From a bacterium (GTDB lineage: Bacteria > Patescibacteriota > Minisyncoccia > Minisyncoccales > PEYH01), in NCBI GenBank assembly GCA_021161645.1, contig JAGHAC010000046.1, positions 1 to 49,911 on the forward strand: a DNA stretch of 49,911 nucleotides. The letters run 5' to 3'. Shown one piece after another: positions 1-25,590 of this stretch. The stretch's first letter is position 1. Each line of letters begins with the position of its first letter. The notes beneath the pieces are model-generated. The model was not told the origin of the DNA, did no database searches, and was given only the letters and a program-made list of their open reading frames with translations. The position numbers were made by a program, and so were the translations under genes.

Positions 1-3
1 GAA

Positions 4-768: not shown

Positions 769-771
769 ATT

Positions 772-2982
772 ATGAGAAAAAAAATTACTATTTTCTTATT
801 TCTTGTTCTCACTCTTCTCTTTGCTCCTCATTTAACCCAGGCGGCGTCTGTTTTAGGAATACTCGGAAGCATCTTGGCTATTGTCTTATCACCTGTAATA
901 GCAGTTTTTACTTTAATTACCCGTCTTTTTTTTGTCTGGTCTGCCACTGTTCTAGTTTGGGTAGCGAATCCTTCTTTTATAAAAGTTTCTTTTACGAGAA
1001 ATGAATTTGTTCAGGAAGGATGGACTATTACTAGAGACTTCACTTATATGTTTTTCCTTCTTATCTTGGTCGCAATAGGTTTTGCTACCGCTCTCAGAAT
1101 TAAGGGTTACGAAGTAAGCAAAACCCTTCCTCGCCTGATAGGAGTTGCTCTCCTAATTAATTTTACGCCCGTGATATGCGGCGTAGTCATTGATGCTAGC
1201 AATATTTTTATGAACTTCTTTCTTTCTGCTGGTGGAGCTGGATATTCGGGCATCATAAACACAATAACCGATCTAGCAAAAAACGTAGCCGATGCTCTTT
1301 ATACTTCATCTGCAAGAAATCTCTTAAATGGTCAACTCTTATTTCAAGGATTAGGAATTATTCTTTTTAATATTATGGGAGCGTTCGTGATGATCTTGAT
1401 GGCAGGATTGTTCTTAATAAGATATATGGCTTTGTGGACCTTGGTTATTTTATCTCCCTTGGGTTTTGCTGCTCTTATCTTACCCTCTACCCAAAAATAT
1501 TGGGGAATATGGTGGAAACAATTTCTTAACTGGTGTTTTGTAGGGGTAGGAGCTTCTTTTTTTCTTTACCTTTCTCAAAAAATGGCTGAATTTGTGCATA
1601 GTTACATTGCTGTTCCGCCTACAGAAAGTACTGCTCTGGGATTATTATTGGTTAGATTCTTACCTCTTATATTTTTAGTAATTGGCTTCTTTGCCACTAC
1701 TAACGCCTCTGCTATGGGAGCTAGTCAGACGCTTAATTTTATGAAAAAACAAATAGGGCGGGCTAGAAAAAAAATTATTGAACCTAGAACTAAAGATTTC
1801 CTTCGAGCATATCAGGAAAAAGTGCTGGGTCGCCCAAAAGTAAGACAAGCGATGCAAAAACTTCAAACCCTCCGCCCTCCTCAAAAATTCGGAAAAGCAG
1901 GGAAAGTTCTTGCTCCTGCTACTTGGACAATAAGGAAGCTTTCGCAGGGAACTAGCTATGTTACCGGCACCCCCGAGTCAACCCTTGCATATTTCACACG
2001 AGACAAAAAAGGTCTAGAAAGCTCCTCATATCCCGCCCTTGTAAGCACATTAACTGCCTCAGGTGCAACCGTGCCGCTTTCTAAAAAATTAGCCGCTCTC
2101 TCAATTTTACAAGAACGAGGACAACTTAAAGAGGCAATTAAAAACGGTCTTATTTCTCCAGAGCAAGTATTAAATATTTTATCTGGCATCTACAAACACA
2201 GAGCTCTTTCCAAAAAACATAAAAAAGTAATAGAAGGTCTAGAGCGCTCCCTCTATCTTCAGACAAAGGACCAAAAACAAAGAGATAATATTCTAGCTCG
2301 TATTGTCAGAAACAGGGCAGCAGGTGAGGGTAAAACAGTCGAGGAATGGGAAGCAGAAAATATTAAGGGTAAAGGGTACCGCGATTACGAGCAGATAATT
2401 CTTACCTCTCTTAAAACACCTGAAGACATCGAATCTTTTGCCGGTAAACTAAAGGAAGGAATGGTTGAGAAGTTCTTAGAAAAAGCATCTCCATCCCAAG
2501 TAAGAAAATGGGCAGAAAACTTAGGAAATGAATTTAACAATTTATACAGCAAAATACTTAATGAAAAAGGTGCTGCTTGGCTTGCTGAAATTGATTCCAA
2601 CACTAATAATCCTCGAAACCTTCCTCTGTTAAAATATGCTGTAAGCACTGCAGCTCAGGCATATTTACCTACTCCTCATAAATTCGAAGAAACCGCTGTA
2701 AACTTTGTAGTGAAAAAAGCGCAGGAATATTCTTCTAAGATCCGGGGTGCCGGCAAGAATACTTCTCAGCTGAAAAGTCTTCTAACAAATCTAGAACGAG
2801 AAAAAAATAGCATCTTGTCAAATCCAAAATTAACTGACGAACAAAAAGGCATTTATGAATCATTCTTTGACTCCTATGGAAAGGCTATAAGAGATTTAAT
2901 TCGCAGCCAACAGACAGAAACAGACAGCGGTGGAACAAGATATGGCGATGGTTCTGGTGGCGGTGGTCGATATCCACAATAA
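772..2982 (+). CDS. Polytopic membrane protein, VirB6/TrbL-like, with ~400 aa hydrophilic C-terminal tail
   Basis: 736 aa ORF starting 4 nt after the previous stop. The first ~330 aa contain about 6-7 hydrophobic helices. The rest is charged and helical and ends in GSGGGGRYPQ. The VirB6 call rests on topology and position beside VirB4/VirB3-like genes. Confidence 0.55.
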   Translation: MRKKITIFLFLVLTLLFAPHLTQAASVLGILGSILAIVLSPVIAVFTLITRLFFVWSATVLVWVANPSFIKVSFTRNEFVQEGWTITRDFTYMFFLLILVAIGFATALRIKGYEVSKTLPRLIGVALLINFTPVICGVVIDASNIFMNFFLSAGGAGYSGIINTITDLAKNVADALYTSSARNLLNGQLLFQGLGIILFNIMGAFVMILMAGLFLIRYMALWTLVILSPLGFAALILPSTQKYWGIWWKQFLNWCFVGVGASFFLYLSQKMAEFVHSYIAVPPTESTALGLLLVRFLPLIFLVIGFFATTNASAMGASQTLNFMKKQIGRARKKIIEPRTKDFLRAYQEKVLGRPKVRQAMQKLQTLRPPQKFGKAGKVLAPATWTIRKLSQGTSYVTGTPESTLAYFTRDKKGLESSSYPALVSTLTASGATVPLSKKLAALSILQERGQLKEAIKNGLISPEQVLNILSGIYKHRALSKKHKKVIEGLERSLYLQTKDQKQRDNILARIVRNRAAGEGKTVEEWEAENIKGKGYRDYEQIILTSLKTPEDIESFAGKLKEGMVEKFLEKASPSQVRKWAENLGNEFNNLYSKILNEKGAAWLAEIDSNTNNPRNLPLLKYAVSTAAQAYLPTPHKFEETAVNFVVKKAQEYSSKIRGAGKNTSQLKSLLTNLEREKNSILSNPKLTDEQKGIYESFFDSYGKAIRDLIRSQQTETDSGGTRYGDGSGGGGRYPQ

Positions 2983-3014
2983 AGGGGCTGCTTTAAAGCG
3001 GCCCCTCTTCTTTT
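2983..3014. terminator. Bidirectional intrinsic terminator between convergent genes
   Basis: Hairpin AGGGGCTGC-tttaaa-GCGGCCCCT (one G-U pair) preceded by AAA and followed by CTTCTTTT. It lies exactly between the stop at 2982 (+) and the stop at 3013 (-). Confidence 0.7.
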
Positions 3015-4155
3015 AGCCCTTATTTTGGGAACTTTGAAGTTTTTGGGCGAGATATTTTACCAAAGGAGTGATTATCTCTGTAAGCTGAGAAATGATAGGC
3101 TCCAGGGCCACAACCCATTGCTTTTGCTCTGCTGCCGTACCAAGTTTTTCCAAAATTAACGCCTGATCAAGAGCTTTTCTTTTCCCCATTCCTGCTTCTC
3201 CGAGAATTTCAGCCGATTGGACTACAGGACGAACCCTCATTGTAGCTTCTTCTAGCGCCCTATAGGTTGCTGCTTCTGCTGCTCTGCGAGCAACAAGTGG
3301 TTCTTGACGTGCTTTTTCTATGTTTTCTGGCAATTCTTGGCCTGTAAATTTTGCCGAAACTATTTTTATGCCCATGTCGGCTGCCTGGCTCTGTATCTGT
3401 TCGAGTTCTTTACATATAGTCTCGTGGATTATCGACACCGTCTTGATTCTTTGTTTCTCTAGTTCAAGTTCATCTAATAGGGGTTGGAGTAATGTTGATT
3501 TCGATGCCCCTAGCTCGATTTCTCTTTTCAAGCTTGCAATCCTTTCTTCCAAATTTCTGATTTTTACTTGGTCGATTCCGGGCGATTCTTTGATTCTTTC
3601 AAGTAAATCCCCCAGAATCATTCCACTATCCACAGCTTCTCTTACAGTGAATGTCTGAACAAAGCGCGGCAACAGACTTTCAAACGCATCTCTCACCCAC
3701 TCCCTCCAAAACTTTACATTGTATATTACCCTTTGGGGATTATCCGGATCTATTGTTATGTACACTATAGGGTATCTAGGAATAACTGAACCATCAACCA
3801 GGTCTAACTCATATGTTTGTTCGGTAAATAATTCGATAGGCTGTATTCGTATGTCCACTCTTTCTCTGACTGTATCTACAAAAGGCAACTTAAAATTCCA
3901 ACCTGGGAAAAACACTCTATGGAACTTTCCAAGACGCTCTATTATCCAGCGTTCCGGCTCTTCTACTATCACAATACAAAACAAATATAAGGCGCCTGTT
4001 ATAAGAAAAATTCCGCCAAGAATAGGCGCTATACCAAAATAGATCCCCTGAACCGCGACGAGAATTCCTAAAATCAATAAAGTGATCCTTGCTATCCCCA
4101 GCCAACGCCTCTGTCTTTCGATGCTAGTTAATTGTTTCTCTTCCTTTTCAGCCAT
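3013..4155 (-). CDS. SPFH/band-7 (stomatin/prohibitin-like) membrane protein with coiled-coil C-terminal extension
   Basis: Two N-terminal TM helices are followed by IIERLGKFHRVFFPGWNFKLPFVDTV, typical of an SPFH domain start. I prefer the ATG at 4155 because GGAGGA lies 7 nt upstream. The longest ORF starts at 4170. Confidence 0.8.
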   Translation of the reverse strand: MAEKEEKQLTSIERQRRWLGIARITLLILGILVAVQGIYFGIAPILGGIFLITGALYLFCIVIVEEPERWIIERLGKFHRVFFPGWNFKLPFVDTVRERVDIRIQPIELFTEQTYELDLVDGSVIPRYPIVYITIDPDNPQRVIYNVKFWREWVRDAFESLLPRFVQTFTVREAVDSGMILGDLLERIKESPGIDQVKIRNLEERIASLKREIELGASKSTLLQPLLDELELEKQRIKTVSIIHETICKELEQIQSQAADMGIKIVSAKFTGQELPENIEKARQEPLVARRAAEAATYRALEEATMRVRPVVQSAEILGEAGMGKRKALDQALILEKLGTAAEQKQWVVALEPIISQLTEIITPLVKYLAQKLQSSQNKG

Positions 4156-4251
4156 TTTTATTCCTCCCATTTACTTTTTGAAGGTTCTTCTTACTAATAA
4201 AGTATACCATAATTAAGTCTCTCTTGTCAAACCTTACTTATTGTCTTTGTT

Positions 4252-4281
4252 TTCAAAATTATGATAAAATAATGATATAAT
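4252..4281 (+). promoter_or_regulatory. Candidate extended -10 promoter for the 4302-11691 gene string
   Basis: TGaTATAAT at 4273-4281 with a weak -35 (TTCAAA, 4252-4257), 21 nt upstream of the ATG at 4302 in the divergent intergenic region. Confidence 0.4.
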
Positions 4282-4301
4282 GTAACACATAAACAAATTT
4301 T

Positions 4302-4616
4302 ATGGAGCTATCATCTCAAACATATTGGAAAGCATATCAAAAACTTCCCCCTGTGCTTAAGGAAATGATTTTTTCGCCAGATACAGCAGAGGCCATTTGG
4401 GGTATAGCAAAAATTTGTGAGATAGACCGCACTGCCACCTTGGCGAAAATTATAGGAGATGTGCTCTCTGGCTTCCTTCCTCCCGAAAAATTTAAAGAAG
4501 CTGCTCAAAAGCAATTGGGCCTAGACGAGGAAAAAGCAAAAAAGCTTGAAATATATGTTAACCATTACATTTTTGATTTGGTAAGAGACGAACTTAATCA
4601 ACTATACGCTGAATAA
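4302..4616 (+). CDS. Hypothetical small soluble helical protein (first gene of the T4SS-like string)
   Basis: 104 aa ORF with no TM segment and no motif I recognise. Its stop lies 2 nt before the next start. Confidence 0.6.
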   Translation: MELSSQTYWKAYQKLPPVLKEMIFSPDTAEAIWGIAKICEIDRTATLAKIIGDVLSGFLPPEKFKEAAQKQLGLDEEKAKKLEIYVNHYIFDLVRDELNQLYAE

Positions 4617-4618
4617 AT

Positions 4619-5035
4619 ATGGAGTATCCTCTTCCTCAATTTTTGGAAATCAAACCAAAGGTCGCCGGGCCCCTTACCCTACGCCAATTATTATATTTTG
4701 CCGGCGCCCTAATTTTCCTTTTATATTTCTACTTTACTAAATCCCCGGGGGTTTTTCTTCTGATAGCTATACCTGTTATTGGGGCAACCTTTATTTTGGC
4801 GTTTGTAAAAGTAAAAGGTTATCCCATTCCTACGCTAATCCTCCGAGCTATCGGCTACTCTATCAAAGAAAAAGTTTATGTTTGGAGAAAAATCTCTACG
4901 CCCACGCCAACTCTTCCAAGAATCGGGGTTGGAAAACCAATTAAAAAAGAAACAAACAAGGTAATTCCTAAAATAGGCCCTTCAAAAAGCAAACTAAAGG
5001 AATTATCTAAATTAGTTGAAATTCATCCAAGATAA
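4619..5035 (+). CDS. PrgI/VirB3-like small two-TM membrane protein
   Basis: 138 aa with two adjacent TM helices (LLYFAGALIFLLYFYF, VFLLIAIPVIGATFILAFV). It sits immediately upstream of the VirB4 genes, the usual VirB3/PrgI position. Confidence 0.5.
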   Translation: MEYPLPQFLEIKPKVAGPLTLRQLLYFAGALIFLLYFYFTKSPGVFLLIAIPVIGATFILAFVKVKGYPIPTLILRAIGYSIKEKVYVWRKISTPTPTLPRIGVGKPIKKETNKVIPKIGPSKSKLKELSKLVEIHPR

Positions 5036-5037
5036 AT

Positions 5038-5679
5038 ATGCCTTTTTTTTCTACAGGAAGCGCCCAAGTGCTTCTTCCGATTAAACAAATTCGCGATGGA
5101 ATTATCATAATGCGAGACAATAGTCTGCGGGGAATATTAATGGTTTCTTCCATTAATTTTGAACTTAGGTCTTATGAAGAGCAGGAAGCTATTATCTTTC
5201 AATTTCAAAATTTCTTGAACTCCTTAGATTTTTCCTGTCAAATATTAGTCAATTCTCGCAAAATTAACATTACCGGCTACCTTGACCTTCTCAAAAGAGC
5301 AGAAGAAACACAAACTAATTCTCTTTTGAAGCAACAGATTATTGAATATAGAAAATTTATTGATCAATTAGTCGCGGGTGGTTCAATAATGAATAAAAAT
5401 TTCTATTTAATTATTCCTTTCTTTTTGGGTGAGAAAAAGAAAACCGATATATTTCGCCTCAAAACAATCCCTCGTCTTACCGAAGAACTCTATCAGCAAT
5501 ACAGGAGACATCTTTATCAAAGAATGGAATTTTTGGCCTTAGGATTAAGAAGATGTGCCCTTTGGGCAATGCCTTTGAAAACCGAAGAAATTATAGAACT
5601 TTTGTGGAGTTATTATCATCCCAAAGAAGCACAGGTTGGATATTATCCTGAGATCCCTCCTGAACTAATTATTGGTTAA
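5038..5679 (+). CDS. VirB4-family N-terminal domain encoded as a separate polypeptide
   Basis: 213 aa. The stretch LPIKQIRDGIIIMRDNSLRGILMVSSINFELRSYEEQEAIIFQFQNFLNSLDF has the pattern I associate with the extreme N-terminus of Gram-positive-type VirB4/TrsE/Orf16 ATPases. The TAA stop at 5677-5679 lies 2 nt before the next ATG, which is in a different frame. Confidence 0.6.
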   Translation: MPFFSTGSAQVLLPIKQIRDGIIIMRDNSLRGILMVSSINFELRSYEEQEAIIFQFQNFLNSLDFSCQILVNSRKINITGYLDLLKRAEETQTNSLLKQQIIEYRKFIDQLVAGGSIMNKNFYLIIPFFLGEKKKTDIFRLKTIPRLTEELYQQYRRHLYQRMEFLALGLRRCALWAMPLKTEEIIELLWSYYHPKEAQVGYYPEIPPELIIG

Positions 5680-5681
5680 TT

Positions 5682-7457
5682 ATGTCTTTCTCTTTTCTCA
5701 AAAACATTATTCCCTCCCGTCCTCAACCTCAAGCAATGACTCTGCTGGATTTTATTGCTCCGCCCGCAATAAAGGTAGGCTCAAACTACATTCAAATAGG
5801 CGAAAAACTTGCTCGTTCATATTTCATCTTTTCTTTTCCTCGATATTTAACCACCGGATGGCTTTCTCCGTTAATTAATCTTGATGTCCCTCTTGATATA
5901 TCTATTTTTCTTCATCCAATAGACACGGGTTTAGTTTTAAAAAAACTTAGAAAGAAAGTAACTCAGATTCAGTCGGAAATTATGGAAAAAGAAGAGAAAG
6001 GATTGATTAGAGATCCTGTACTAGAAACGGCTTATAGAGACGCCGAAGTTTTAAGAGATCGCTTACAAACCGCCCAAGAAAGAATGTTTGATGTAGGCAT
6101 TTACATAAATGTTTATGCTGATTCTGAAAAAGAACTGGAGAAGACCGAGGCTACCATCCGAGCTATTCTTGAATCTAAGCTTGTATATATCAAACCCGCC
6201 CTATACCAACAAGAAAAGGGACTAATTTCGTCGTCACCATATGCCTTAGACCAACTGAATGTGCACACACCGATGAATACCAGCCCTCTCTCTACTCTTT
6301 TCCCTTTTGTTTCCTTTGATTTAAGCTCTAATGAGGGAATTTTATATGGCATTAACCAACACAATAACTCATTAATTTTATTTGATAGATTCAGCCTGGA
6401 AAACGCCAATATGGTTGTTTTTGGTAAATCGGGCGGAGGAAAATCATACGCGGTAAAATTAGAGATTTTGAGATATCTTATGCTAGGCGTTGATGTAATT
6501 GTTATTGATCCGGAAAACGAATATAAATTTTTGTGTGATGCAGTTGGTGGAGGTTTTTATAACATTTCTTTAAAATCGCCAAACCACATTAATCCCTTTG
6601 ATTTACCCGAACCTTTAGAAGACGAAACCCCTGAAGAAGTTCTGAGGTCAAATATTATAAACCTTGTAGGGCTTTTAAGGTTAATGCTTGGGGGTTTAAC
6701 GCCCGAAGAAGATTCTATTATAGAGCAAGCAATAACGGAAACCTACGCTGCGAGAGATATAACTGAGAACACTGATCCTAAATTATGGCCTGAACGACTT
6801 CCTCTTCTTTCTGACTTAGAGTCGGTTCTAGAAACGATGGAGGGAGCAGAATCTCTTGTGCAAAGATTAAGAAAGTTTACTAAAGGGGTCTACTCTGGAT
6901 TCTTCAACTACCCTACAAATATAAAAATGGAGAATAATATGGTGGTTTTCGGAATAAAAAACCTTGAACCGGAATTAAGACCGATGGCGATGTATATTAT
7001 TATGCGTTATATATGGAATACTATCAAAGGAGAGTTAAAGAAAAGAATGCTTGTAATTGATGAGGCTTGGTGGCTCATGCAAAACGAAGATAGCGCCTCT
7101 TTTCTGTTTGGAATAGTAAAGCGAGGAAGAAAGTACTGGCTGGGAACTACCACCATCACTCAAGACGTAAATGACTTTATGAAATCAGAATATGGACAGC
7201 CTATTATCTCAAACTCTTCTCTTCAATTATTAATGAAGCAATCTCCGGCAACAATTGCTGTAGTCCAAAAAACTTTTAACCTCACAGATAACGAAAAGGA
7301 TCTGCTTTTAGAGGCTCCTGTAGGAGAGGGAATCTTTTTTGCCGGCGAAAAACATGTTGCTATAAGGGTAGTTTCCTCTTATACAGAACACCAAATTATT
7401 ACTACTTCTCCTGAAGAGCTGGCAAAAATAAAAGAATTAAAAAAGATTAATCAATGA
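5682..7457 (+). CDS. virB4: VirB4-class type IV secretion ATPase (middle domain plus ATPase domain)
   Basis: Walker A VVFGKSGGGKSY, Walker B RMLVIDEAWWLM and TTITQD are present. The N-terminal part (YFIFSFPRYLTTGWLSPLINLDVPLDISIFLHP) is typical of the VirB4/TraE middle region. Confidence 0.85.
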   Translation: MSFSFLKNIIPSRPQPQAMTLLDFIAPPAIKVGSNYIQIGEKLARSYFIFSFPRYLTTGWLSPLINLDVPLDISIFLHPIDTGLVLKKLRKKVTQIQSEIMEKEEKGLIRDPVLETAYRDAEVLRDRLQTAQERMFDVGIYINVYADSEKELEKTEATIRAILESKLVYIKPALYQQEKGLISSSPYALDQLNVHTPMNTSPLSTLFPFVSFDLSSNEGILYGINQHNNSLILFDRFSLENANMVVFGKSGGGKSYAVKLEILRYLMLGVDVIVIDPENEYKFLCDAVGGGFYNISLKSPNHINPFDLPEPLEDETPEEVLRSNIINLVGLLRLMLGGLTPEEDSIIEQAITETYAARDITENTDPKLWPERLPLLSDLESVLETMEGAESLVQRLRKFTKGVYSGFFNYPTNIKMENNMVVFGIKNLEPELRPMAMYIIMRYIWNTIKGELKKRMLVIDEAWWLMQNEDSASFLFGIVKRGRKYWLGTTTITQDVNDFMKSEYGQPIISNSSLQLLMKQSPATIAVVQKTFNLTDNEKDLLLEAPVGEGIFFAGEKHVAIRVVSSYTEHQIITTSPEELAKIKELKKINQ

Positions 7458-7855
7458 TCCCAGAACCGGAAACGCTTTTAGATTTTCTGGTTGCTATAAT
7501 TTTAGACGCTATAGGAGCGCTCTGTCTTATCATTGATTTAACTGGGCTGGGCACAGTTTTTGGCGAAGCGCTTTCGTTTGTCCCCGATATTATTGGCTTT
7601 TTTTATTTTGGGACAGAGCTACTCTTTAAGACTGTTTTGTCAAACACAATGAGTGATATCTCTTCTGTTCCTACCACTGTCTTAGAAGGAATATCTAACA
7701 AAAACACATCCAGGAAGATTGTTAAGACAACTTTAAAAAGAGTAGCTTCTAGATTTGCTTTGTTTTCTATCTTAGAATTTATTCCTGTCGTGGGAAGTTA
7801 TTTTTTCTGGACTCATTATGTTATCTCAAAATCCAAAATGGATCTTAATTCTTAA
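7454..7855 (+). CDS. Small multi-TM membrane protein, unknown function
   Basis: 133 aa with an ATGA overlap onto the VirB4 stop. It has hydrophobic helices at both ends. Confidence 0.55.
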   Translation: MIPEPETLLDFLVAIILDAIGALCLIIDLTGLGTVFGEALSFVPDIIGFFYFGTELLFKTVLSNTMSDISSVPTTVLEGISNKNTSRKIVKTTLKRVASRFALFSILEFIPVVGSYFFWTHYVISKSKMDLNS

Positions 7856-10094
7856 CTGCTTGATGGCAATGACTTTGTGCCTAATTGCTGACTCTTTAGT
7901 TTGGGCTACGGATTTAGAGGTAAAATATCCTCGAATTCCCGGAATTACTCCGCCAGAAAGTGTTCAAGTCCCTCTTTCTTTTTACTTAAATTATATTTTT
8001 GAACTCGCTGTTGGCCTTGCAGGTTTTTTGGTATTTTTTCTTCTTATTAGGGCGGGAACTATATATGTTTTTAATTCTTATAACCCTGGCAAAGTAAAAG
8101 AGGCAAAAGAAATTCTTACCTTTGCTTTTGTAGGTTTTGGTATTATCCTTTCTTCTTATCTAATTTTGGCATTAATCAATCCTCAATTAGTTAAATTTCA
8201 TCTCCCCTCTCTAACACCTGCAAAACTAGAACCTATAGAAGAAATTGGCGAAATTCAGGCTCCCTCAATTCCTTTAACCGAAATTCCTGTGGGGACTTTA
8301 ATTACCTCAGAGACCGGGGTTTCTTCTTTTATTTTAACTCCTGGAACAGATCCCCCTTATAATCACCCAAATTATGATAAATATTTTCCTGGAGTAGTAA
8401 AATATCCAACAGATTATCAGGGGGCAATAAATGGAAGAAGGGTTAAAAGAATACATGAAGTTACCCAACACAGCGTACCTATGTCTGGCATAATGGTATT
8501 TCTGGTAGAAAAACTAAAAGGGCTTACTGATAAGTGTGTATGTAGAAATTGTGAATGTATTGCTAAGCAAAGCTGCCGGGCCGGAGAGTGCCAATTAGGT
8601 ATATGTACCTCAGAAACAAGAGCGAGAATAACTTGTGCTCAACTTCAGATTGTTTTCTTTACAGGCGCATATACTGCTTGGCTGGACGGCAACAATATTT
8701 TAGAAAGATATGTAAAAGCCAACCAGGGGCTATTAGTTAAAATCGAGAACTGCGACCCCGAGGGTACAGCAAAAATAATGCAAGCGATAAAGAAAGCAAT
8801 CGAAATTGAAAATAAAGGAACATGGACTCCTAAAACCGACCCGCCAGAGAGAGACGTCCAGCAAAACATCTGGCACCTAGAGAAAATTATTGAGTATTTA
8901 AATAGCGTGAAACTTACCTTAACGCCTGAGATTCCCGGTAACCCCTGCTCCTATGTTTATAGCAACGCTCAAGTTGGAGGAGAAATAGCAAAAGATGTTG
9001 TGCCTATGATCGAAGAAGTCAATGTTATAGAAGACCCTGCTACATTTTACTGTTCTCTCTCTCCATTAAAAATTTTGAGTGATTTGGAATTGCTCCAAAT
9101 TCTCTCTCAAGAATTGGGAAGTTCTGAAGCCCCAAGTACCTGTGACGATATAGTAGAAATCCCTGTAGGAAAAGCGATAGACGAAGCTCTAAAACTTGCC
9201 AATGATATGTTGAGAGAATTAAAAAATATTTGGAAGCAAGGACACCAACAAATTGAATGGGCTTTACAAATGAATGATATTGCTGATAAAATAAAAACAG
9301 AGAACAACTGTTCTGTTTATTGCATTCATAAAGTAAGATGCCTCTTCACTAACCCTGAAACTCACCGTTGTGAGGTCTGTGAGTGTACATGTAAAGAATC
9401 ACCTACCCTTACAGTGCTTCGTCAAAAACTTCAAGATCTCTTAGAGGCCATTAAACAAGCTCATGATAGCATTTTTATGTCTTTTAAAAGAATCAATTCT
9501 AAAGACCCTCTTACAGGACAACGTGTGCCTATTGGTATAGATCGCTGCTGCGTAAAACCATTAGGAGATTGCTTTTTGGAAAACGAGTTCGAAAAGCGGG
9601 ATTACACTCTTAAAGAAAAGCTTCTCGAAGTTCAAAAGCTGCTTGACCGCGCTCGATTATTTAGTACATACGAATTACTGCTTAAACAGCTTGCTAATCT
9701 TAAATCATCGGGTCGCCTATCCGGTCCAGAATATGCTAGATTACCAGACCCAATTAAAGAGTTTAATAAAGTTTTAAGTGCAGAATATGCGAAATACAGA
9801 TATGACCTTACAAACTGTGATGTTCTAACCAAACAGCACATTGAATCAGAAGAAACGGTAGGCCAACTTAATATTTTAGAGAGTTGTTATGTGGCAAAAA
9901 CCATTTATCATTTAAATCCTGAATATTGTCGCTCCAACCCACCTTATAATTGTGATTATTTCAATCCTATTTCCCCTCCAAAACTGAGACAAGGGTTGCT
10001 CTGCTATTGTAACCAACCCCCGGATTTTTCTGAAATTGCTTCTGATTTTTTCTGCTGTGTAAGCGCATCTCATATGTTACAAAAAGAGCGGTAA
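7818..10094 (+). CDS. Giant pilin-fusion: signal peptide, VirB2/TrbC-like two-helix hairpin, ~620 aa cysteine-rich ectodomain
   Basis: Signal peptide ...LIADSLVWA, then LEVKYPRIPG, then helix1 (YLNYIFELAVGLAGFLVFFLLI), loop NSYNPGKVKEAKE and helix2 ending LINPQL. About 30 Cys follow in CxC/CxxC clusters (CVCRNCECIAKQSC, CEVCECTC, DRCCV, FFCCV). An alternative start at 7863 is possible. Confidence 0.7.
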   Translation: MLSQNPKWILILNCLMAMTLCLIADSLVWATDLEVKYPRIPGITPPESVQVPLSFYLNYIFELAVGLAGFLVFFLLIRAGTIYVFNSYNPGKVKEAKEILTFAFVGFGIILSSYLILALINPQLVKFHLPSLTPAKLEPIEEIGEIQAPSIPLTEIPVGTLITSETGVSSFILTPGTDPPYNHPNYDKYFPGVVKYPTDYQGAINGRRVKRIHEVTQHSVPMSGIMVFLVEKLKGLTDKCVCRNCECIAKQSCRAGECQLGICTSETRARITCAQLQIVFFTGAYTAWLDGNNILERYVKANQGLLVKIENCDPEGTAKIMQAIKKAIEIENKGTWTPKTDPPERDVQQNIWHLEKIIEYLNSVKLTLTPEIPGNPCSYVYSNAQVGGEIAKDVVPMIEEVNVIEDPATFYCSLSPLKILSDLELLQILSQELGSSEAPSTCDDIVEIPVGKAIDEALKLANDMLRELKNIWKQGHQQIEWALQMNDIADKIKTENNCSVYCIHKVRCLFTNPETHRCEVCECTCKESPTLTVLRQKLQDLLEAIKQAHDSIFMSFKRINSKDPLTGQRVPIGIDRCCVKPLGDCFLENEFEKRDYTLKEKLLEVQKLLDRARLFSTYELLLKQLANLKSSGRLSGPEYARLPDPIKEFNKVLSAEYAKYRYDLTNCDVLTKQHIESEETVGQLNILESCYVAKTIYHLNPEYCRSNPPYNCDYFNPISPPKLRQGLLCYCNQPPDFSEIASDFFCCVSASHMLQKER

Positions 10095-10095
10095 T

Positions 10096-11691
10096 ATGAA
10101 AAAAAGATTAATATTCTATTATTCTCTAACAGTTGTATTGACTATCATTGCAAGTACCACCTTAGTGAGGGCTGATTCTGGTTTAGAATTAGAAGTAAAA
10201 TACCCGAACCTGTCTCAAACAATATCTCCGCCCCAATCAGCCAAGGGGTACCTTGTTGATTATATTAAATATATTTTTGAAGTGGCAATTTTCCTCTCCG
10301 GAATCGTGGCTTTTGTGGCTTTTCTCAGGGGAGGGTTTTCCTATCTTACTTCAACAGGCAATCCCTCTAAAATGCAAGATGCTAGAGACCAAATTCTTGC
10401 CGGTTTTCTTGGTTTAATTATTATCTTAGGTTCTTTTATCCTTTTGAATACCATCAACCCGCAATTAACGGAAATTAAACCTCCTGGAATTACTGGAGTA
10501 GGCCGAGGCATTATAGTCTATTCCGACGAAAACTGTGGAGATGGCGCTAATGCCCTTCCCGGTGTTCTAAAACCTTTACCTGAGGGAGTTATTTACGAAA
10601 GAGTAGAGTGGACCAAGGCTCTCTCTTCCACATCAAGAGCCCAGAACGGAACAAGAAAAGGAATGGCTATCAGATCTTTATATTCCTTCAATAGCGGAGA
10701 AGAATTAGTTCGTATAGAATTTTATCAAAACAAAGAGTGCCAAGGTCAGCCAATATCTGTTTTTACCCCCCCGAATGCAGACAAATGTTATAGCGGGACT
10801 GATATAGCCGACCAAGGGAAAATAGAGGATGTCCAATGTATTAAACTCATATGGCATATTCCCGGCGTCTGGCTTTTTACTGAAGAAGACGGAAATCCTG
10901 AATCGCCTACAGGTCCTTTTACAATAATACAAATGGATGCTCCCTCGCTACCGGAGAAGGTAGCTGGCAAAGTAAAATCTATCGCTTTAGTTGATGATGA
11001 ATTAAAACATCAAAAATATGGGGTTGTTCTCCATGAAAAATCTGGGCCTAGATACAAGGTTAAAGGTTGGGCACATCCTTATTTTCCTAAACCACAACTC
11101 TCGACAACCCGTTATAAAACAACAAACAAAAATGCTCATTCTGCCACAGTGTTTATTGTAGATGAAAACACTCCTTCTAAATGGGTGAGGCTTTGCGAGC
11201 ACGACGATTGCCAGCCGGCATCAGTTAATGAAGGAGGAGAGGTTGTTTCTAAGCCGGCTGAGAGATATTATATGTGGCCGGGGGAAAACAGACCTCCTGT
11301 CGGTGGCAACACTACACCATTAAAAGAGATTGAAAAAGTACCTCCTGAATATGCCAGAGGGGCTCTTCTCCACGAAGACGCTGATGAGTGGTGGAAGGGA
11401 GGAGATAAAGTAGCTATTTGTGAAAGTGTAAGTGGTATTAATTGGATCGGCAGAATTACCCAGTTGACAGGTAAATGTTATCGAGGAGTCTCCGCCATCG
11501 AACTCGAAGAGGGAAGTAGTTATATCTTAATCCTTTGGGCTACAGGGAAAACAAAACCACAATGGGTGGAAGGTGCGCGAGGAAATGCTCCGGCTCTTAT
11601 TATAGACAAAACCACTCGAAAACTGATTGACTTCGGATTTAATGAACAGTTGGGCATGTTTTTGGTTATAAAGGTTAAATCTTCTTTTTAA
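10096..11691 (+). CDS. Pilin-fusion paralog: signal peptide, VirB2/TrbC-like hairpin, ~400 aa ectodomain with 8 Cys
   Basis: Signal peptide ...STTLVRA, then LELEVKYPNLS, YIKYIFEVAIFLSGIVAFVAFL, loop STGNPSKMQDARD, and helix2 ending TINPQL. The N-terminal ~130 aa are clearly paralogous to the 7818 ORF. Confidence 0.7.
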   Translation: MKKRLIFYYSLTVVLTIIASTTLVRADSGLELEVKYPNLSQTISPPQSAKGYLVDYIKYIFEVAIFLSGIVAFVAFLRGGFSYLTSTGNPSKMQDARDQILAGFLGLIIILGSFILLNTINPQLTEIKPPGITGVGRGIIVYSDENCGDGANALPGVLKPLPEGVIYERVEWTKALSSTSRAQNGTRKGMAIRSLYSFNSGEELVRIEFYQNKECQGQPISVFTPPNADKCYSGTDIADQGKIEDVQCIKLIWHIPGVWLFTEEDGNPESPTGPFTIIQMDAPSLPEKVAGKVKSIALVDDELKHQKYGVVLHEKSGPRYKVKGWAHPYFPKPQLSTTRYKTTNKNAHSATVFIVDENTPSKWVRLCEHDDCQPASVNEGGEVVSKPAERYYMWPGENRPPVGGNTTPLKEIEKVPPEYARGALLHEDADEWWKGGDKVAICESVSGINWIGRITQLTGKCYRGVSAIELEEGSSYILILWATGKTKPQWVEGARGNAPALIIDKTTRKLIDFGFNEQLGMFLVIKVKSSF

Positions 11692-20509: not shown

Positions 20510-21517
20510 TTAGAAAGACATTTGGCTATTTTTAGAAGAAATTCCCAAATGGGTGTAAGCAAGGTCGGTTGCTATTCTGCCCCGTTGGGTTCTTTTTAAA
20601 AGCCCTAACTGAAGGAGGTAAGGCTCATATATTTCTAAGATAGTGTCAATTTCTTCTCCTACTGTTGCTGCTAATGCTTGAATTCCTACGGGCCCGCCAT
20701 TAAACTTTTGGATTATCGCCCTTAAAATTTTTCGATCTGCTTCTTCTAATCCCAGTTTATCAATTCCCATAGCCTCAAACCCTAAAATGGCTATTTGTTT
20801 GTCAATAATACCATTTCCTTCAATCTGGGCGAAATCGCGAAGCCTTTTTAAAAGTCTGTTTGCTACTCGAGGCGTAAAACGACATCTTTCCGAAATGAAT
20901 TCTACGGCTTTCTCAGTTATTTCTACCCCGAGAATTTTGGCAGAACGTCCGATGATTTTTTTGATATCTTCTTTTGTGTAGAAATTTAATTGAAAAGTGG
21001 CTCCAAAACGACTTCTTAAAGGAGAAGATAAAAGAGCTATTCTTGTTGTTGCTCCTATAAGAGTAAATTTTGGGAGCTTGAGTTCAATTGTTCTTGCCAT
21101 AACTCCTCTGCCGGCCATAAGGTGCAATTTAAAATCTTCCATTGCAGGATAGATCAACTCTTCACATGTTTTACTTAGTCTATGAATTTCATCTATAAAA
21201 AGAATGTCTCCTTCTGATAGGTTAGTAAGAAGAGCTGCCAAATCTCCGGGTTTTTCAATCATAGGACCGGCAGTAATTCTGATATTTGTCTTTAGCTCTT
21301 TAGCAATAAGATAAGCAAGCGTTGTTTTACCTAATCCAGGAGATCCATAGAAGAGGAGATGATCTGGATTTTCCTTTCTTTTTTTTGCCGCCTCAATAAT
21401 AACTTTCAGGTTTTTTTTAACCCGTTCCTGTCCAATATACTCTTCCCATTTTTGAGGCCGTAAAACAGCATCTATTGTCTCCTCGGTTGCGCGTGGGGTT
21501 TCTCCCTTGACAGACAT
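20510..21517 (-). CDS. ruvB: Holliday junction branch-migration ATPase RuvB
   Basis: LRPQKWEEYIGQERVK, Walker A GSPGLGKTTLA and Walker B ILFIDEIHRL. Confidence 0.95.
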   Translation of the reverse strand: MSVKGETPRATEETIDAVLRPQKWEEYIGQERVKKNLKVIIEAAKKRKENPDHLLFYGSPGLGKTTLAYLIAKELKTNIRITAGPMIEKPGDLAALLTNLSEGDILFIDEIHRLSKTCEELIYPAMEDFKLHLMAGRGVMARTIELKLPKFTLIGATTRIALLSSPLRSRFGATFQLNFYTKEDIKKIIGRSAKILGVEITEKAVEFISERCRFTPRVANRLLKRLRDFAQIEGNGIIDKQIAILGFEAMGIDKLGLEEADRKILRAIIQKFNGGPVGIQALAATVGEEIDTILEIYEPYLLQLGLLKRTQRGRIATDLAYTHLGISSKNSQMSF

Positions 21518-21535
21518 TTTGATGTTTGCTATAAT
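21507..21535 (+). promoter_or_regulatory. Consensus sigma70-type promoter on the plus strand
   Basis: TTGACA (21507-21512), exactly 17 nt of spacer, then TATAAT (21530-21535), preceded by TGc (extended -10). The -35 overlaps the first codons of ruvB on the other strand. Confidence 0.65.
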
Positions 21536-21672: not shown

Positions 21673-22971
21673 TTATCTTTCCATGGCTACTCTTTTTACC
21701 TCTTCTATGGTGGTAATTTTCTCTATAACCTTTATCAAACCATCTTTATACATAGAAACCATTCCTCTTTTCTCCGCCAGTTTTCTCATCTCGGAGACAG
21801 ATGGTTTTTTAAGAATCAGGTCTTCCATTTCAGAATCTACTAAAAAAGCTTCAAAAATGCCCACTCTTCCTTTATAACCAGTAAAGTTGCAGTATTTGCA
21901 ACCTTTTGCTTCCATAACTTCTAAATCCTGAGAAATTTTAGGAATTTTAATATCTTTGGGTAAGTTAGAGAATTCTGATTTTAACATTTGGAATTCTTCA
22001 GGACTAATTTTTCTAGGGAGAGCACATTTTGGACAAATTTTTCTTACCAATCTTTGGGCAATAACCATATTAATTGCCGGTGCAATATTAATAGGATTTG
22101 CTCCCAAAGATGCCAGTCTTGGAATAGCACCCGGAGCATCGTTTGTATGAAGAGTAGAAAAAACAAGATGTCCGGTAAGAGCAGCCTGTAGAGCAATTTC
22201 AGCGGTTTCTTTATCTCTGATTTCTCCTACTAGAATAACATCCGGATCTTGACGAACAATGGACCTAAGGCCATTTGCAAAATCGTATCCTTTTTCTGGG
22301 TGAACTTCTGTTTGCGAGATTCCTTCTAATCTGTACTCAATTGGATCTTCGATAGTAATAATTTTAATCTCAGGCTTTTGAAGGAAGCGCAGGAAAGCAT
22401 ACAAAGTAGTAGTTTTTCCTGAACCAGTAGGACCAGTCACAATAATCATTCCGTTTGGTTTCTGGATTTCATTTTTAAATAATTCTAGAAGATCTTTTCT
22501 TAACCCCAATTCTTCAATGTTTTTTAAACTTTGAGGGTTGAGAATTCTCATTACGATAGATTCTCCATAATCTGCAGGCAGGACAGAAGTTCTAATTTCT
22601 ATTTCTAATTGAGGTAGAGCAACGGAAAAACTTCCATCTTGGGCCCTATCGTGAATGTTTAGTTTTAGTCCCGCCAACAATTTTATTCGCGAAAGCAAAA
22701 GATGGTATGTTTCTACTCGAAAAGAGAAAACATCTTGTAGCATTCCGTCTAACCGGATTCTTAAACGAACACTTTCTTCCTGTGGTTCTAGATGAATGTC
22801 TGAAGCAAATAAATGAATTGATCCAGTCAAGATCAAGCCGAGAAGATCACTAATATCTTTATCAAGAAATTTTTCTATTTCTTTGGCAAAATCAGAAACG
22901 CTTTCGATTTCTTTTTGAGCCAGTTTCTGAATTTCTGGAGGTATAACAATTTTGTCTGTTATTGTTACCAT
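21673..22971 (-). CDS. Short GspE/PilB-family secretion ATPase (lacks the long N-terminal domains)
   Basis: Walker A GPTGSGKTTT, Asp box EDPIEY, Walker B DPDVILVGEIRD, His box LTGHLVFSTLHTN and the tetracysteine CPKC...CKYC. I prefer the ATG at 22971; the ORF track uses the TTG at 22980. Confidence 0.85.
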   Translation of the reverse strand: MVTITDKIVIPPEIQKLAQKEIESVSDFAKEIEKFLDKDISDLLGLILTGSIHLFASDIHLEPQEESVRLRIRLDGMLQDVFSFRVETYHLLLSRIKLLAGLKLNIHDRAQDGSFSVALPQLEIEIRTSVLPADYGESIVMRILNPQSLKNIEELGLRKDLLELFKNEIQKPNGMIIVTGPTGSGKTTTLYAFLRFLQKPEIKIITIEDPIEYRLEGISQTEVHPEKGYDFANGLRSIVRQDPDVILVGEIRDKETAEIALQAALTGHLVFSTLHTNDAPGAIPRLASLGANPINIAPAINMVIAQRLVRKICPKCALPRKISPEEFQMLKSEFSNLPKDIKIPKISQDLEVMEAKGCKYCNFTGYKGRVGIFEAFLVDSEMEDLILKKPSVSEMRKLAEKRGMVSMYKDGLIKVIEKITTIEEVKRVAMER

Positions 22972-22976
22972 AGAAT

Positions 22977-24059
22977 TCAACAGCTTGAAATTTCTTGTAT
23001 TAGTTTCTCCTTTTTTTCTTTCGGTATTTGGAAGAGAAGGGCTTTTCCATTGGTTTGCCCTCCAAATTTAGAAGCAAGTCTAACCAATGTTTCTTTTTCT
23101 GGAAAATAAAAAACCCCTCCAAGAGATGATAAGTCAGCATGGGACTCCCATAAAATTAGAAGAGAGGGGAAATTGAATACTTGAACGCGAAGCATTTTAA
23201 TAAGATAAATAATTTTTTGACGATCTATATCAGCGAATTCCTTTTTGGTTAAGATCACTAAAGGAATATTGTTTTCGCCTATTACTTTAATTCTTTTTAA
23301 TACTTTCTCAGAAAAAGTCAAAACTTCGGGATTAGGATTTCTCAAAAAGAGCCTTAGAATATTTTTTATTTCTAAAGCATTTCTTTGGGCAAGGGTAAAA
23401 ACCTGTAATATTTTTTCGGGATCTTTTTTGTAATAGTCAATTATTCCTACAAAAAGATTTTCTAGCAAAATTTTATCTTCTGTTTTTGGCAAAAGATTTA
23501 TGGCCAGTTGATGAACTATTTCCGAAAGAGCCATATCCTTTTTTATCCAATTTATTTGCCCAAAATTAAAATTGTCTTTTTGGTTATCTATATTCAAAAT
23601 GAAACCCTCAAAAAATGTTTTAAAGTTTTTTTCATAATATTCTCCTAACTCTTCTAAATTTCTTACTCCAAGAGAAATAATTAAATCAACATTTAAATTT
23701 AGAGGATCGTCTTCTAAAGAAAAAAGACGAATGTTGTTAGAAGAGGAGGAGTTTTTTGATAAGGTAATTAGCAATCGGAAAGATTCGGAGCTTTTTTGAT
23801 AATACAGTTCAGAGATATTGTTTGGAGGTGAGATTTCCAGAATATAGGTATCAAGGTTATCGATAGGGTGAGGCAAAAGAGAGAATTTATTCTTGATTGT
23901 TTCCGGATAAATATTTACTTTTTTGCCAATCCTTTTTAGAGTGTAAAAAAGGCAAAAAAACGCAGATATTAAATCTAAAGTTAATTTACCACTTTTGGTA
24001 ACTAAAAGCACAGACTGAGAGTTGATTATTTTTTGTCTAATCTCTTGAAGTTCGTCCAT
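22977..24059 (-). CDS. Degenerate DHH/DHHA1-like protein (NrnA-like layout, catalytic motifs substituted)
   Basis: Its length and order resemble NrnA-type phosphoesterases. ILNIDNQ sits where IDHH is expected, and LASKFGGQTNGKALLF sits where the DHHA1 GGGH motif is expected. I prefer the ATG at 24059; the TTG at 24098 gives the longest ORF. The family call is from memory-based alignment only. Confidence 0.35.
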   Translation of the reverse strand: MDELQEIRQKIINSQSVLLVTKSGKLTLDLISAFFCLFYTLKRIGKKVNIYPETIKNKFSLLPHPIDNLDTYILEISPPNNISELYYQKSSESFRLLITLSKNSSSSNNIRLFSLEDDPLNLNVDLIISLGVRNLEELGEYYEKNFKTFFEGFILNIDNQKDNFNFGQINWIKKDMALSEIVHQLAINLLPKTEDKILLENLFVGIIDYYKKDPEKILQVFTLAQRNALEIKNILRLFLRNPNPEVLTFSEKVLKRIKVIGENNIPLVILTKKEFADIDRQKIIYLIKMLRVQVFNFPSLLILWESHADLSSLGGVFYFPEKETLVRLASKFGGQTNGKALLFQIPKEKKEKLIQEISSC

Positions 24060-24112
24060 AATCTTTTTCAATTTAATTCCAAAGATTCCAAAAGTCAATT
24101 TTGTGAGATTTA

Positions 24113-24613
24113 ATGAAATCTAAAGCAAATAACAAGAAAAAATTATTGTGTGCTTCTCTTTCAGCACGAGAAACCCGCAAAATGGGTAAAATTTTTGCCC
24201 GCAAAGTTTTAAATTGTGGTTTCTTAAACAAAAATCTAAGAAAACAGGCAATAGTCATAGCTTTGGAGGGAGATTTAGGCGGCGGGAAAACAACTTTTGC
24301 TCAAGGATTTGCTAAGGGACTGGGCATTGAAAGAAAAATTTTAAGCCCTACATTTGTGATTATAAAAAGATATCCAATTCCAGCAGTAAAGAGTAGCTAT
24401 TTCTGCCACATAGATTGTTATCGAATTAAATCTTCAAAAGATCTTAAAAGCATAGGAATAAAAAGATTAATAAAAGACACAAGAAATATTATTATTATTG
24501 AATGGGCTGAAAAAATTAGAGAAATACTTCCCGAAGACACCATTTGGATCCGTTTTGAGTTTGTAGATTTAAAGAAGAGAAGAATTTATAGTTCTTGGTG
24601 CGGGAAAAATTAA
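24113..24613 (+). CDS. tsaE: tRNA t6A37 biosynthesis ATPase TsaE
   Basis: ALEGDLGGGKTTFAQGFAKGLGI...SPTFVIIKRY, the P-loop plus SPTF signature of the TsaE/YjeE family. Confidence 0.85.
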   Translation: MKSKANNKKKLLCASLSARETRKMGKIFARKVLNCGFLNKNLRKQAIVIALEGDLGGGKTTFAQGFAKGLGIERKILSPTFVIIKRYPIPAVKSSYFCHIDCYRIKSSKDLKSIGIKRLIKDTRNIIIIEWAEKIREILPEDTIWIRFEFVDLKKRRIYSSWCGKN

Positions 24614-24624
24614 TATTCTCTTTT

Positions 24625-25590
24625 ATGGAAAAGAAGAAAATAATCATTATAGATGGCAATGCGATAGTCCATCGTGCTTATCATGCGTTACCAAAACTTA
24701 CCACAAAATCAGGCAAGGTTGTTAATGCTGTTTATGGCTTTCTTTTAATCTTGTGGAGGGTATTTAAGGACTTTAAACCGGATTTTGCGATTGTTGCTTT
24801 TGATTTCCCCGCTCCGACCTTCAGAGATAAAATTTATAAAGAATACAAAGCTAAAAGAAAAAAGGCGCCTGACGAACTGTATGAGCAAATACCAGAGGTA
24901 AAAAAAGTTCTTAGGGCTTTCGGAATTAAATTTTTTGAGCTTAAGGGTTATGAGGCAGACGATCTTATAGGCACAATTGTAAAATTGGCAGAAAAAAAAC
25001 AGATTTTCCCCAAAATAGAGGTAATTATTACAACAGGAGACTTAGATGCGCTTCAGTTGATCGATAATCAGACAAAAGTTCTTCTTCTGAAAAGAGGTAT
25101 TAAAGAGGCGGTTTTATACGATAAAGAAGAAGTTAAAAAAAGATATCAGATAGAACCTGAGCAATTAATTGATTTTAAGGCTCTGAGGGGGGATCCTTCA
25201 GACAATATTCCAGGGATTTCTGGCATAGGAGAAAAAACAGCTATTAATTTAGTTAAGCAGTTTGGCTCTTTAGAAAATCTTTACAAAGCAATAGAAGAGA
25301 ATCGCGATATTACAAAAAAAATATCTCCGAGGGTAAGGGAGCAGTTAATGCGCTCAAAAGAAGAGGCTTTTTTTTCGAGAAAACTCGTTGAGATTAGAAA
25401 AGACGCTCCTATAAATTTTAATTTGCAAGAATGTAGAATTGATAAAGAGAATTTATCTAAGGCAAAGAAGATCTTAGAGGAATTTGAGTTTTTTAGCTTA
25501 ATCAAAAGGCTTCCAGAGATTTTTAATTCTAAAACAGAAGAAGAGCAATTATCTAATAGTCAAGAATCAATCCAACAAAAACTTGTCTAG
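24625..25590 (+). CDS. 5'-3' exonuclease / flap endonuclease (stand-alone Pol I N-terminal domain)
   Basis: IIIDGNAIVHRAYHA, GYEADD, GDLDALQL and the H3TH motif GDPSDNIPGISGIGEKTA. I prefer the ATG at 24625 over the ORF-track start at 24595. Confidence 0.9.
   Translation: MEKKKIIIIDGNAIVHRAYHALPKLTTKSGKVVNAVYGFLLILWRVFKDFKPDFAIVAFDFPAPTFRDKIYKEYKAKRKKAPDELYEQIPEVKKVLRAFGIKFFELKGYEADDLIGTIVKLAEKKQIFPKIEVIITTGDLDALQLIDNQTKVLLLKRGIKEAVLYDKEEVKKRYQIEPEQLIDFKALRGDPSDNIPGISGIGEKTAINLVKQFGSLENLYKAIEENRDITKKISPRVREQLMRSKEEAFFSRKLVEIRKDAPINFNLQECRIDKENLSKAKKILEEFEFFSLIKRLPEIFNSKTEEEQLSNSQESIQQKLV

Follow-up and report, generated by a model that had tools for sequence, protein, structure and literature searches.

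A catalytically degenerate NrnA-type DHH/DHHA1 protein encoded directly before an orphan PilB-type ATPase in Patescibacteria

The genes considered here lie in a 49,911-nucleotide stretch of DNA (positions 1 to 49,911 of contig JAGHAC010000046.1, assembly GCA_021161645.1, hereafter called the window) from a bacterium of the Patescibacteria (GTDB lineage Patescibacteriota; Minisyncoccia; Minisyncoccales; PEYH01) whose genome is about 90% complete. Two tightly packed open reading frames (ORFs), both confirmed on the minus strand, form the locus of interest. The first encodes a protein with the two-domain fold of NrnA-type DHH/DHHA1 phosphoesterases in which most catalytic and substrate-binding residues have been replaced, and the second encodes a GspE/PilB-type ATPase whose motifs are intact and which belongs to a clade of its own. 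The pair is conserved in related genomes. We call the upstream protein DHHL and the ATPase clade PilB3. Both are working names coined here, and the cassette that they make up corresponds to no published family. Its features are as follows.

22977 to 24059, minus strand: DHHL gene, coding for a 360-amino-acid degenerate NrnA-type DHH/DHHA1 protein (ORF, family profile, AlphaFold2 model, Foldseek search, and ratio of nonsynonymous to synonymous substitution rates, dN/dS)
21673 to 22971, minus strand: PilB3 gene, coding for a 432-amino-acid orphan GspE/PilB-type ATPase with N2 and C-terminal ATPase domains and without MshEN (PF00437)
22980, minus strand: alternative TTG start of PilB3, for an ORF of 21673 to 22980 (sequence)
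24070 to 24098, minus strand: promoter-like TTGACT-17-TAAATT, about 10 nucleotides upstream of the DHHL ATG (consensus scan, a pattern match only)

The sequence at the junction of the two genes, TGT TGA ATTCT ATG, bears out the spacing given in an earlier note on this DNA: a 5-nucleotide gap if PilB3 begins at ATG 22971, or a 4-nucleotide overlap if it begins at TTG 22980. Close relatives use the ATG, which yields the 432-residue protein. A site scan of the minus strand revealed no terminator-like sites between DHHL and PilB3. The true start of DHHL is almost certainly ATG 24059 (360 residues), because all homologues begin there. We rejected the TTG at 24098 (373 residues) for this same reason, and this codon also coincides with the first promoter-like base. 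The promoter-like element is likely to be the promoter of the operon, in which case the resulting mRNA would be nearly leaderless.

As a single sequence, DHHL has no match in Pfam, in NCBIfam or among PDB sequences. A large protein collection yielded 43 homologues, all named examples of which come from Patescibacteria and some of which are annotated as DHH phosphoesterases, and 28 of 42 DHHL relatives match PF01368. A profile built from the family matches Thermotoga maritima TM1595 across both domains (E 1.3e-28, profile positions 5-65 and 117-364), and it likewise covers both domains of NrnA, Rv2837c and Pde2 (E 1e-23 to 1e-12). The AlphaFold2 model of DHHL is confident (predicted local distance difference test score 89.2, predicted template modelling score 0.86), and the top 30 Foldseek matches to this model in the PDB are without exception NrnA, TM1595, Rv2837c, Pde2, DhhP or the catalytic domain of GdpP (E about 1e-16 to 1e-9, with a probability of 1.0 for the NrnA-type hits). 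Global template modelling scores against these matches are only 0.41-0.47, which we tentatively attribute to a differing angle between the two domains of the model. By fold and ancestry, DHHL is an NrnA-type DHH/DHHA1 homologue. The earlier note had suggested this identity from the layout of the protein, and the profile and structure searches it called for both found the DHH/DHHA1 fold. One addition to the fold can be located on the gene.

23715 to 23846, minus strand: inserted block of beta strands, about 45-50 residues long, located after motif I and before motif II (no counterpart in TM1595 for profile positions 66-116; strands at residues 72-114)

Tyr87 in this insertion is conserved in nearly all copies. 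Such an insertion characterises the NrnA-like family of Patescibacteria, with the same spacing in its intact, presumably active members. Intact NrnA-like proteins often have long tails as well. In P0177, P0075, P0092 and P0106, from other Patescibacteria, these extend over 100-360 residues, are acidic and rich in Pro, Gln and Ser, seem to be disordered and match nothing in Pfam.

When the canonical residues are placed on DHHL through the TM1595 alignment, six of the eight catalytic and substrate-binding positions are found to be replaced. The affected elements are given below, all as read from the alignment.

23973 to 23987, minus strand: motif I, KLTLD in place of ..DxD, with only the second Asp (D29) kept
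23664 to 23684, minus strand: motif II, LIISLGV, with the metal-ligand Asp changed to Gly131 and fixed as such in all 30 order-level copies
23580 to 23600, minus strand: motif III, ILNIDNQ in place of ..IDHH, with Asn159 fixed in the order
23430 to 23447, minus strand: motif IV, GIIDYY, with Tyr209 in the column of the canonical Asp
23049 to 23120, minus strand: DHHA1 substrate elements, with the Arg of the SLRS strand changed to Tyr318 (GGVFYF) and GGGH changed to FGGQTN

Thus, of the four Asp metal ligands three are gone, and so are both His residues of the DHH motif, the Arg that binds substrate, the GGGH His and the DTxxF motif. Only D29 and D158 remain of the canonical metal ligands. ILNIDNQ and FGGQTN can be read directly from the translation, just as the earlier note had described them (DNQ for DHH, GGQT for GGGH). 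Because its catalytic residues are replaced, DHHL is predicted to be catalytically dead, in that it could not work as a two-metal phosphodiesterase.

It could be argued that DHHL is still an enzyme with altered chemistry, for example one that holds a single metal through D29, D158 and N159 and acts on some phosphoester. The retention of D29 and D158 and the invariance of N156, N159, N163 and N170 within the order would fit such a proposal. However, six of the eight canonical residues are replaced in DHHL, and four at most survive in 163 of the 188 family representatives. Furthermore, a TM1595 double mutant altered at the positions equivalent to G131 and Y209 of DHHL (D80N/D154N) was deposited as an inactive form, according to its PDB entries (5O4Z and 5O7F), and the more distant ATPase-linked copies of DHHL lack even D29 and D158. 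We therefore regard residual catalysis as very unlikely.

The ATPase presents the opposite picture. PilB3 matches the T2SSE family (PF00437) over residues 43-430 with an E value of 5e-116, and it aligns to residues 200-585 of Geobacter metallireducens PilB. Its key motifs were identified by direct reading and by alignment with PilB.

22408 to 22434, minus strand: Walker A, GPTGSGKTT (sequence, PilB alignment)
22135 to 22362, minus strand: Asp box IITIEDPIEY, Walker B DVILVGEIRD and His box LVFSTLHTNDA (sequence, PilB alignment)
21889 to 22035, minus strand: tetracysteine zinc motif, CPKC...CKYC (its Cys pairs align with those of G. metallireducens PilB)

The zinc tetracysteine motif is characteristic of GspE/PilB-type ATPases and is absent from PilT. 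The earlier description of an approximately 432-residue GspE/PilB ATPase that retains its Walker, Asp-box and His-box motifs along with a full CxxC...CxxC element is therefore accurate. PilB3 scores well below the equivalog cut-offs for both GspE (TIGR02533, 440.3 bits against 630.25) and PilB (TIGR02538, 434.5 bits against 675.65), and these models align to it only from about model position 107-170 onward. The scores for PilT/PilU (TIGR01420, 185.9 bits against 319.1) and ComGA (NF041000, 243.4 bits against 300, over residues 50-313 only) also fall short. An identity as PilT or ComGA was rejected on these scores and on the tree described below. An anti-phage defence system was rejected as well, given that PADLOC returned matches only at the level of the P-loop.

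A Pfam scan found neither MshEN (PF05157) nor any other specific domain in PilB3. The canonical PilB encoded at 32874 in the window has 581 residues, with MshEN at 60-144 and T2SSE at 178-577, and so the N-terminal truncation that the earlier note saw in comparison with this protein is real. MshEN is a domain that binds cyclic di-GMP. Orthologues of PilB3 in other orders are full length (554-630 residues), and two of the three scanned contain MshEN. Therefore, the truncation is a loss of MshEN specific to the lineage, at the level of the order.

The truncated ATPase is not a peculiarity of this genome but rather a representative of an old third PilB-like clade that has full-length members. The host genome has three PilB-type genes, one pilT and only two pilC genes (C24:34817 and C8:5908), each of which adjoins a PilB other than PilB3. 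The immediate neighbours of PilB3 are DHHL, tsaE and ruvB, and no pilin, PilC/GspF or PilM-O genes lie next to it. The same repertoire of PilB, PilT and PilC recurs in ten genomes that were examined, with one additional ATPase in some of them. A maximum-likelihood tree places the DHH-linked ATPases in a single clade with support of 100/100, separate from the two groups of PilB linked to PilC or PilT and from PilT itself, whose clade also has support of 100/100. The best hit to a PilB3 query falls within the score range of the clade in nearly all of 151 genomes of the class. Judging from this tree and these scores, PilB3 is an old third PilB-type paralogue in nearly all sampled genomes of the Paceibacteria.

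Two members of the PilB3 clade are themselves unusual. They are single-chain tandem double ATPases of about 1000 residues with two complete T2SSE units (L033:4153-7128 in genome G063, and L073:886-3924 in genome G112). The double ATPase of G063 still follows a degenerate DHH gene, whereas that of G112 has moved away from it. Tandem double ATPases (P0189-P0308) are numerous in records labelled Moranbacteria or Parcubacteria.

To describe how the pair is conserved, two flanking genes must be added to the locus.

24113 to 24613, plus strand: tsaE, divergent, kept beside the pair across the class (neighbourhood comparison)
20510 to 21517, minus strand: ruvB, a conserved downstream neighbour (neighbourhood comparison)

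The order tsaE, degenerate DHH-like gene, PilB3 and ruvB, with tsaE divergent, is met in the window and in its relatives. All conservation counts given here refer to sampled genomes rather than to an exhaustive search. Among 41 relatives, a profile search detected DHHL throughout its own family (all 25 genomes) and, elsewhere in the order, in 8 of 16 families. A short orthologous ATPase (422-470 residues) directly follows DHHL in all 29 evaluable loci of the order, with gaps mostly between -20 and +16 nucleotides and with tsaE divergent on the other side. The sequence of a DHH-like gene, PilB3 and ruvB recurs at 13 of 20 sampled loci from other orders of the class and at 4 of 20 from other classes of the phylum. 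The earlier note had asked whether the gene pair is kept together in related genomes, and these counts show that it is. In the wider comparison, PilB3 is always found among housekeeping genes for nucleic acids, namely the polA 5'-3' exonuclease gene, tsaE, ruvB, yebC and ruvC.

Loss of the catalytic residues goes together with linkage to the ATPase. All 46 ATPase-linked copies of DHHL that were examined lack most of the canonical residues, and all 13 catalytically intact copies sampled in other classes lack an adjacent ATPase. The association is significant by Fisher's test (p = 0.007 in the phylum sample and 3e-8 when pooled), with the caveat that the loci are not phylogenetically independent. 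The wider NrnA-like family, which includes fully intact members, is found throughout the phylum (a match in 210 of 251 genomes) and comprises 3181 clusters at E below 1e-30. In several relatives, two of them from the same order, DHHL coexists with a canonical intact NrnA of 321-327 residues that lacks the insertion, and therefore DHHL is not simply the nanoRNase of the cell. No such canonical NrnA was found in the host genome at its present completeness. The only other DHH protein seen there is a 390-residue RecJ-like protein of the active type (L096:935-2107, G000 contig C30) whose DHH/DHHA1 motifs are intact (DADLDG, LDCG, IIIDHH, LADQ and GGHAPACG).

Given these findings, it seems appropriate to ask what a dead phosphoesterase might do beside an ATPase. 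The earlier note proposed a nucleotide-sensing regulatory subunit, which in its present form would mean that DHHL binds nanoRNA, pApA, pGpG, cyclic di-AMP or pAp without cutting it and signals to the ATPase. Nucleotides of this kind are the substrates of the family, and the best structural matches include PDB entries that contain pApA, AMP or GMP. Moreover, new residues have become fixed in the old active site within the order, with G131, N159 and W304 present in every copy and Y318 in 90%, and the aromatics W304 and Y318 and N159, together with the retained D29, D158 and N156, suggest a pocket rather than drift. PilB3 of this order has also lost MshEN, which is the usual dinucleotide-binding module of PilB/MshE-type ATPases. 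However, the canonical ligand-binding residues (the SLRS Arg, GGGH and DTxxF) are all gone in addition to the metal ligands, and this weakens the proposal to the point where only the order-specific conserved pocket keeps it alive. None of these order-specific residues is conserved in the ATPase-linked DHHL copies of other orders. The idea that DHHL stands in for the lost MshEN was rejected outright, because short ATPases without MshEN exist without DHHL in the same order and many orthologues that carry MshEN do have DHHL. As a consequence, the claim of a nucleotide sensor is unsupported by our data, and we consider it improbable.

The pattern of selection and loss bears on a more serious alternative, namely that DHHL and PilB3 are mere neighbours, with DHHL being a slowly decaying or independently functioning paralogue that has no functional tie to the ATPase. 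DHHL is under purifying selection. Within the genus, its dN/dS is 0.17-0.23, compared with 0.04-0.07 for PilB3, and we therefore consider the gene to be functional but less constrained. This ratio of about 0.2 is difficult to reconcile with simple decay, as is the fact that at least 46 genomes from several classes carry the ORF intact and with a confidently predicted fold. The two genes are on the same strand with near-zero or overlapping spacing within the order, the complete association in our sample between lost catalysis and a position before the ATPase would be unexpected for unrelated neighbours, and this position is kept even by copies that have diverged to 71-73 bits.

Nevertheless, a number of observations speak for independent neighbours, and most of them also weigh against a functional partnership. 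DHHL evolves about three times faster than PilB3 (mean distance 1.48 versus 0.50), and co-evolution is not specific, in that DHHL correlates in a mirror-tree test at least as well with its unrelated neighbour tsaE (r = 0.71) as with the ATPase (r = 0.67). Among 20 sampled genomes of the class that gave no profile hit for DHHL, PilB3 lacks an upstream DHH-like gene in 14, and in 11 of these tsaE adjoins PilB3 instead; in the remaining six, weak or truncated traces of DHHL persist. Within the same order, DHHL is missing from seven families, in which a short ATPase (431-449 residues) directly adjoins tsaE, and in three it is truncated to 237-293 residues. DHHL has therefore been lost or truncated repeatedly while retention of the ATPase is unaffected. 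There were no natural fusions of DHHL with the ATPase among 150 family representatives, in which the long members have disordered acidic tails rather than ATPase domains, and a concatenated DHHL-ATPase query, in a search that was not exhaustive, returned only tandem double ATPases in its top 120 hits. In addition, tsaE and ruvB are just as constant as DHHL in a conserved housekeeping string that runs from the polA exonuclease gene through tsaE, DHHL, PilB3 and ruvB to yebC and ruvC. On balance, we believe that mere proximity is a somewhat unlikely explanation, although it is the strongest of the alternatives.

One consequence of the repeated losses is that DHHL cannot be an obligate subunit of the ATPase. 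This possibility was rejected on the strength of the same-order short ATPases and the 14 class genomes that do without it, which make DHHL at most an optional accessory rather than a required subunit.

The reading that we tentatively favour, with less than even confidence, is that DHHL is such an accessory, non-catalytic and encoded in the same operon as the orphan PilB3. According to this proposal, the two genes would form a small operon, to judge from their spacing, and their products would be made together. The second gene would provide a third PilB-type hexameric ATPase that looks active and has no PilC or pilin genes of its own. The first would provide a paralogue of the Patescibacteria NrnA-type nanoRNase that has kept the two-domain fold and lost the chemistry. 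We suppose that DHHL might bind PilB3 as an adaptor or modulator and thereby influence the ATPase, and that it would sense no nucleotide at its old active site.

A different role can be imagined in which PilB3 and DHHL are not pilus parts at all, but belong to a cytoplasmic nucleic-acid machine specific to Patescibacteria that takes up or processes, for example, DNA or RNA that the cell has scavenged. The dead nanoRNase might then hold an oligonucleotide uncut and gate the ATPase. Such a function fits the constant company of ruvB, ruvC and the polA 5'-3' exonuclease gene, although we judge it to be a quite improbable scenario.

The surroundings of the cassette merit a brief description. Some 10 kb separate the pair from the pilus operon (32874 onward) on one side and from the type IV secretion system locus (1-11691) on the other, which agrees with its remoteness from both as first noted. 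Beyond tsaE, and overlapping its end by 19 nucleotides, the window encodes a stand-alone 5'-3' exonuclease of 331 residues (PolA N-terminal/FEN-like, IIIDGNAIVHRAYHALP; 24595-25590, plus strand), and the pair of tsaE and exonuclease genes is present beside the cassette at most related loci. On the other side, a promoter that fits the sigma-70 consensus perfectly (TTGACA-17-TATAAT, extended by TG; 21507-21535, plus strand) is directed into the gap between the ATPase gene and ruvB, convergent with the 3' end of PilB3. In several genomes of the same order (L118, L119 and L124), the ATPase gene is followed by a gene for a membrane-anchored protein with a lamin-tail domain (LTD) and by yebC, with no ruvB between them. 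The LTD gene therefore travels with the block even where ruvB is not part of it.

Why these genes might deserve further attention can be stated simply. The genomes of Patescibacteria are tiny (about 0.5 Mb), and a third PilB-type motor that is kept by nearly every sampled member of the class is therefore likely to be important. The retention of a dead-enzyme gene before PilB3 in many lineages adds to this case. If DHHL does bind the motor, then it would be an accessory of a type new to secretion or pilus ATPases. If the two are functionally unrelated, then DHHL would be an ordinary decaying paralogue beside an orphan ATPase. Nature has provided a useful series for comparison, which includes full-length ATPases with the partner, short ATPases with the partner, short ATPases without it, and tandem-fused double ATPases.

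Both protein families are well known. Full-text literature searches found no published account of a DHH-PilB3 combination. DHHL shares its two-domain fold and similar length with the NrnA-type enzymes (TM1595, Bacillus subtilis NrnA, Mycobacterium tuberculosis Rv2837c/CnpB, Staphylococcus aureus Pde2 and Borrelia burgdorferi DhhP). It differs from them in having TLD, G, DNQ, Y, Y and GGQTN where these enzymes have DxD, D, DHH, D, the SLRS Arg and GGGH, in its extra beta insertion, and in the location of its gene before a PilB-type ATPase. PilB3 shares the N2 and C-terminal ATPase domains (E about 1e-94), the catalytic boxes and the zinc tetracysteine motif with the PilB, GspE and PilF proteins (G. 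metallireducens PilB 5TSG/6OLJ, Myxococcus xanthus PilB, Vibrio cholerae EpsE and Thermus thermophilus PilF). Unlike them, it lacks the N1/MshEN region and adjacent genes for PilC/GspF, pilins or PilM-O, and it falls in a separate clade. In Saccharibacteria, two type IV pilus systems have been characterised, each with its own PilB and PilC, and the paper that describes them makes no mention of a third ATPase or a DHH protein (PMC12206443).

The FimX-PilZ-PilB system of Xanthomonas offers a precedent for a non-catalytic relative of dinucleotide phosphodiesterases that associates with a PilB-type ATPase (PMC8389850). The degenerate EAL domain of FimX regulates PilB by way of PilZ, and MshEN, through its binding of cyclic di-GMP, is a comparable N-terminal module. 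However, the EAL domain of FimX keeps its ligand-binding residues and acts via the N-terminus of PilB, whereas DHHL has a DHH/DHHA1 fold, has lost its ligand-binding residues and is paired with an ATPase that has no such N-terminus.

A second parallel, alike in concept alone, comes from DNA replication. Cdc45 and archaeal GAN (RecJ-Cdc45) are DHH-family accessories of the hexameric MCM helicase, and Cdc45 is catalytically inactive. The DHHL model matches RecJ-Cdc45/GAN folds only weakly (E 1e-7 to 1e-6). Those proteins are from the RecJ-like branch and DHHL is NrnA-like, and the ATPases are of different classes. What the two cases would have in common is a DHH-fold protein without nuclease chemistry that serves a ring ATPase. 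If our tentative reading is true, then DHHL would be a bacterial DHH-fold pseudoenzyme in the service of such a motor, comparable to Cdc45 with MCM.

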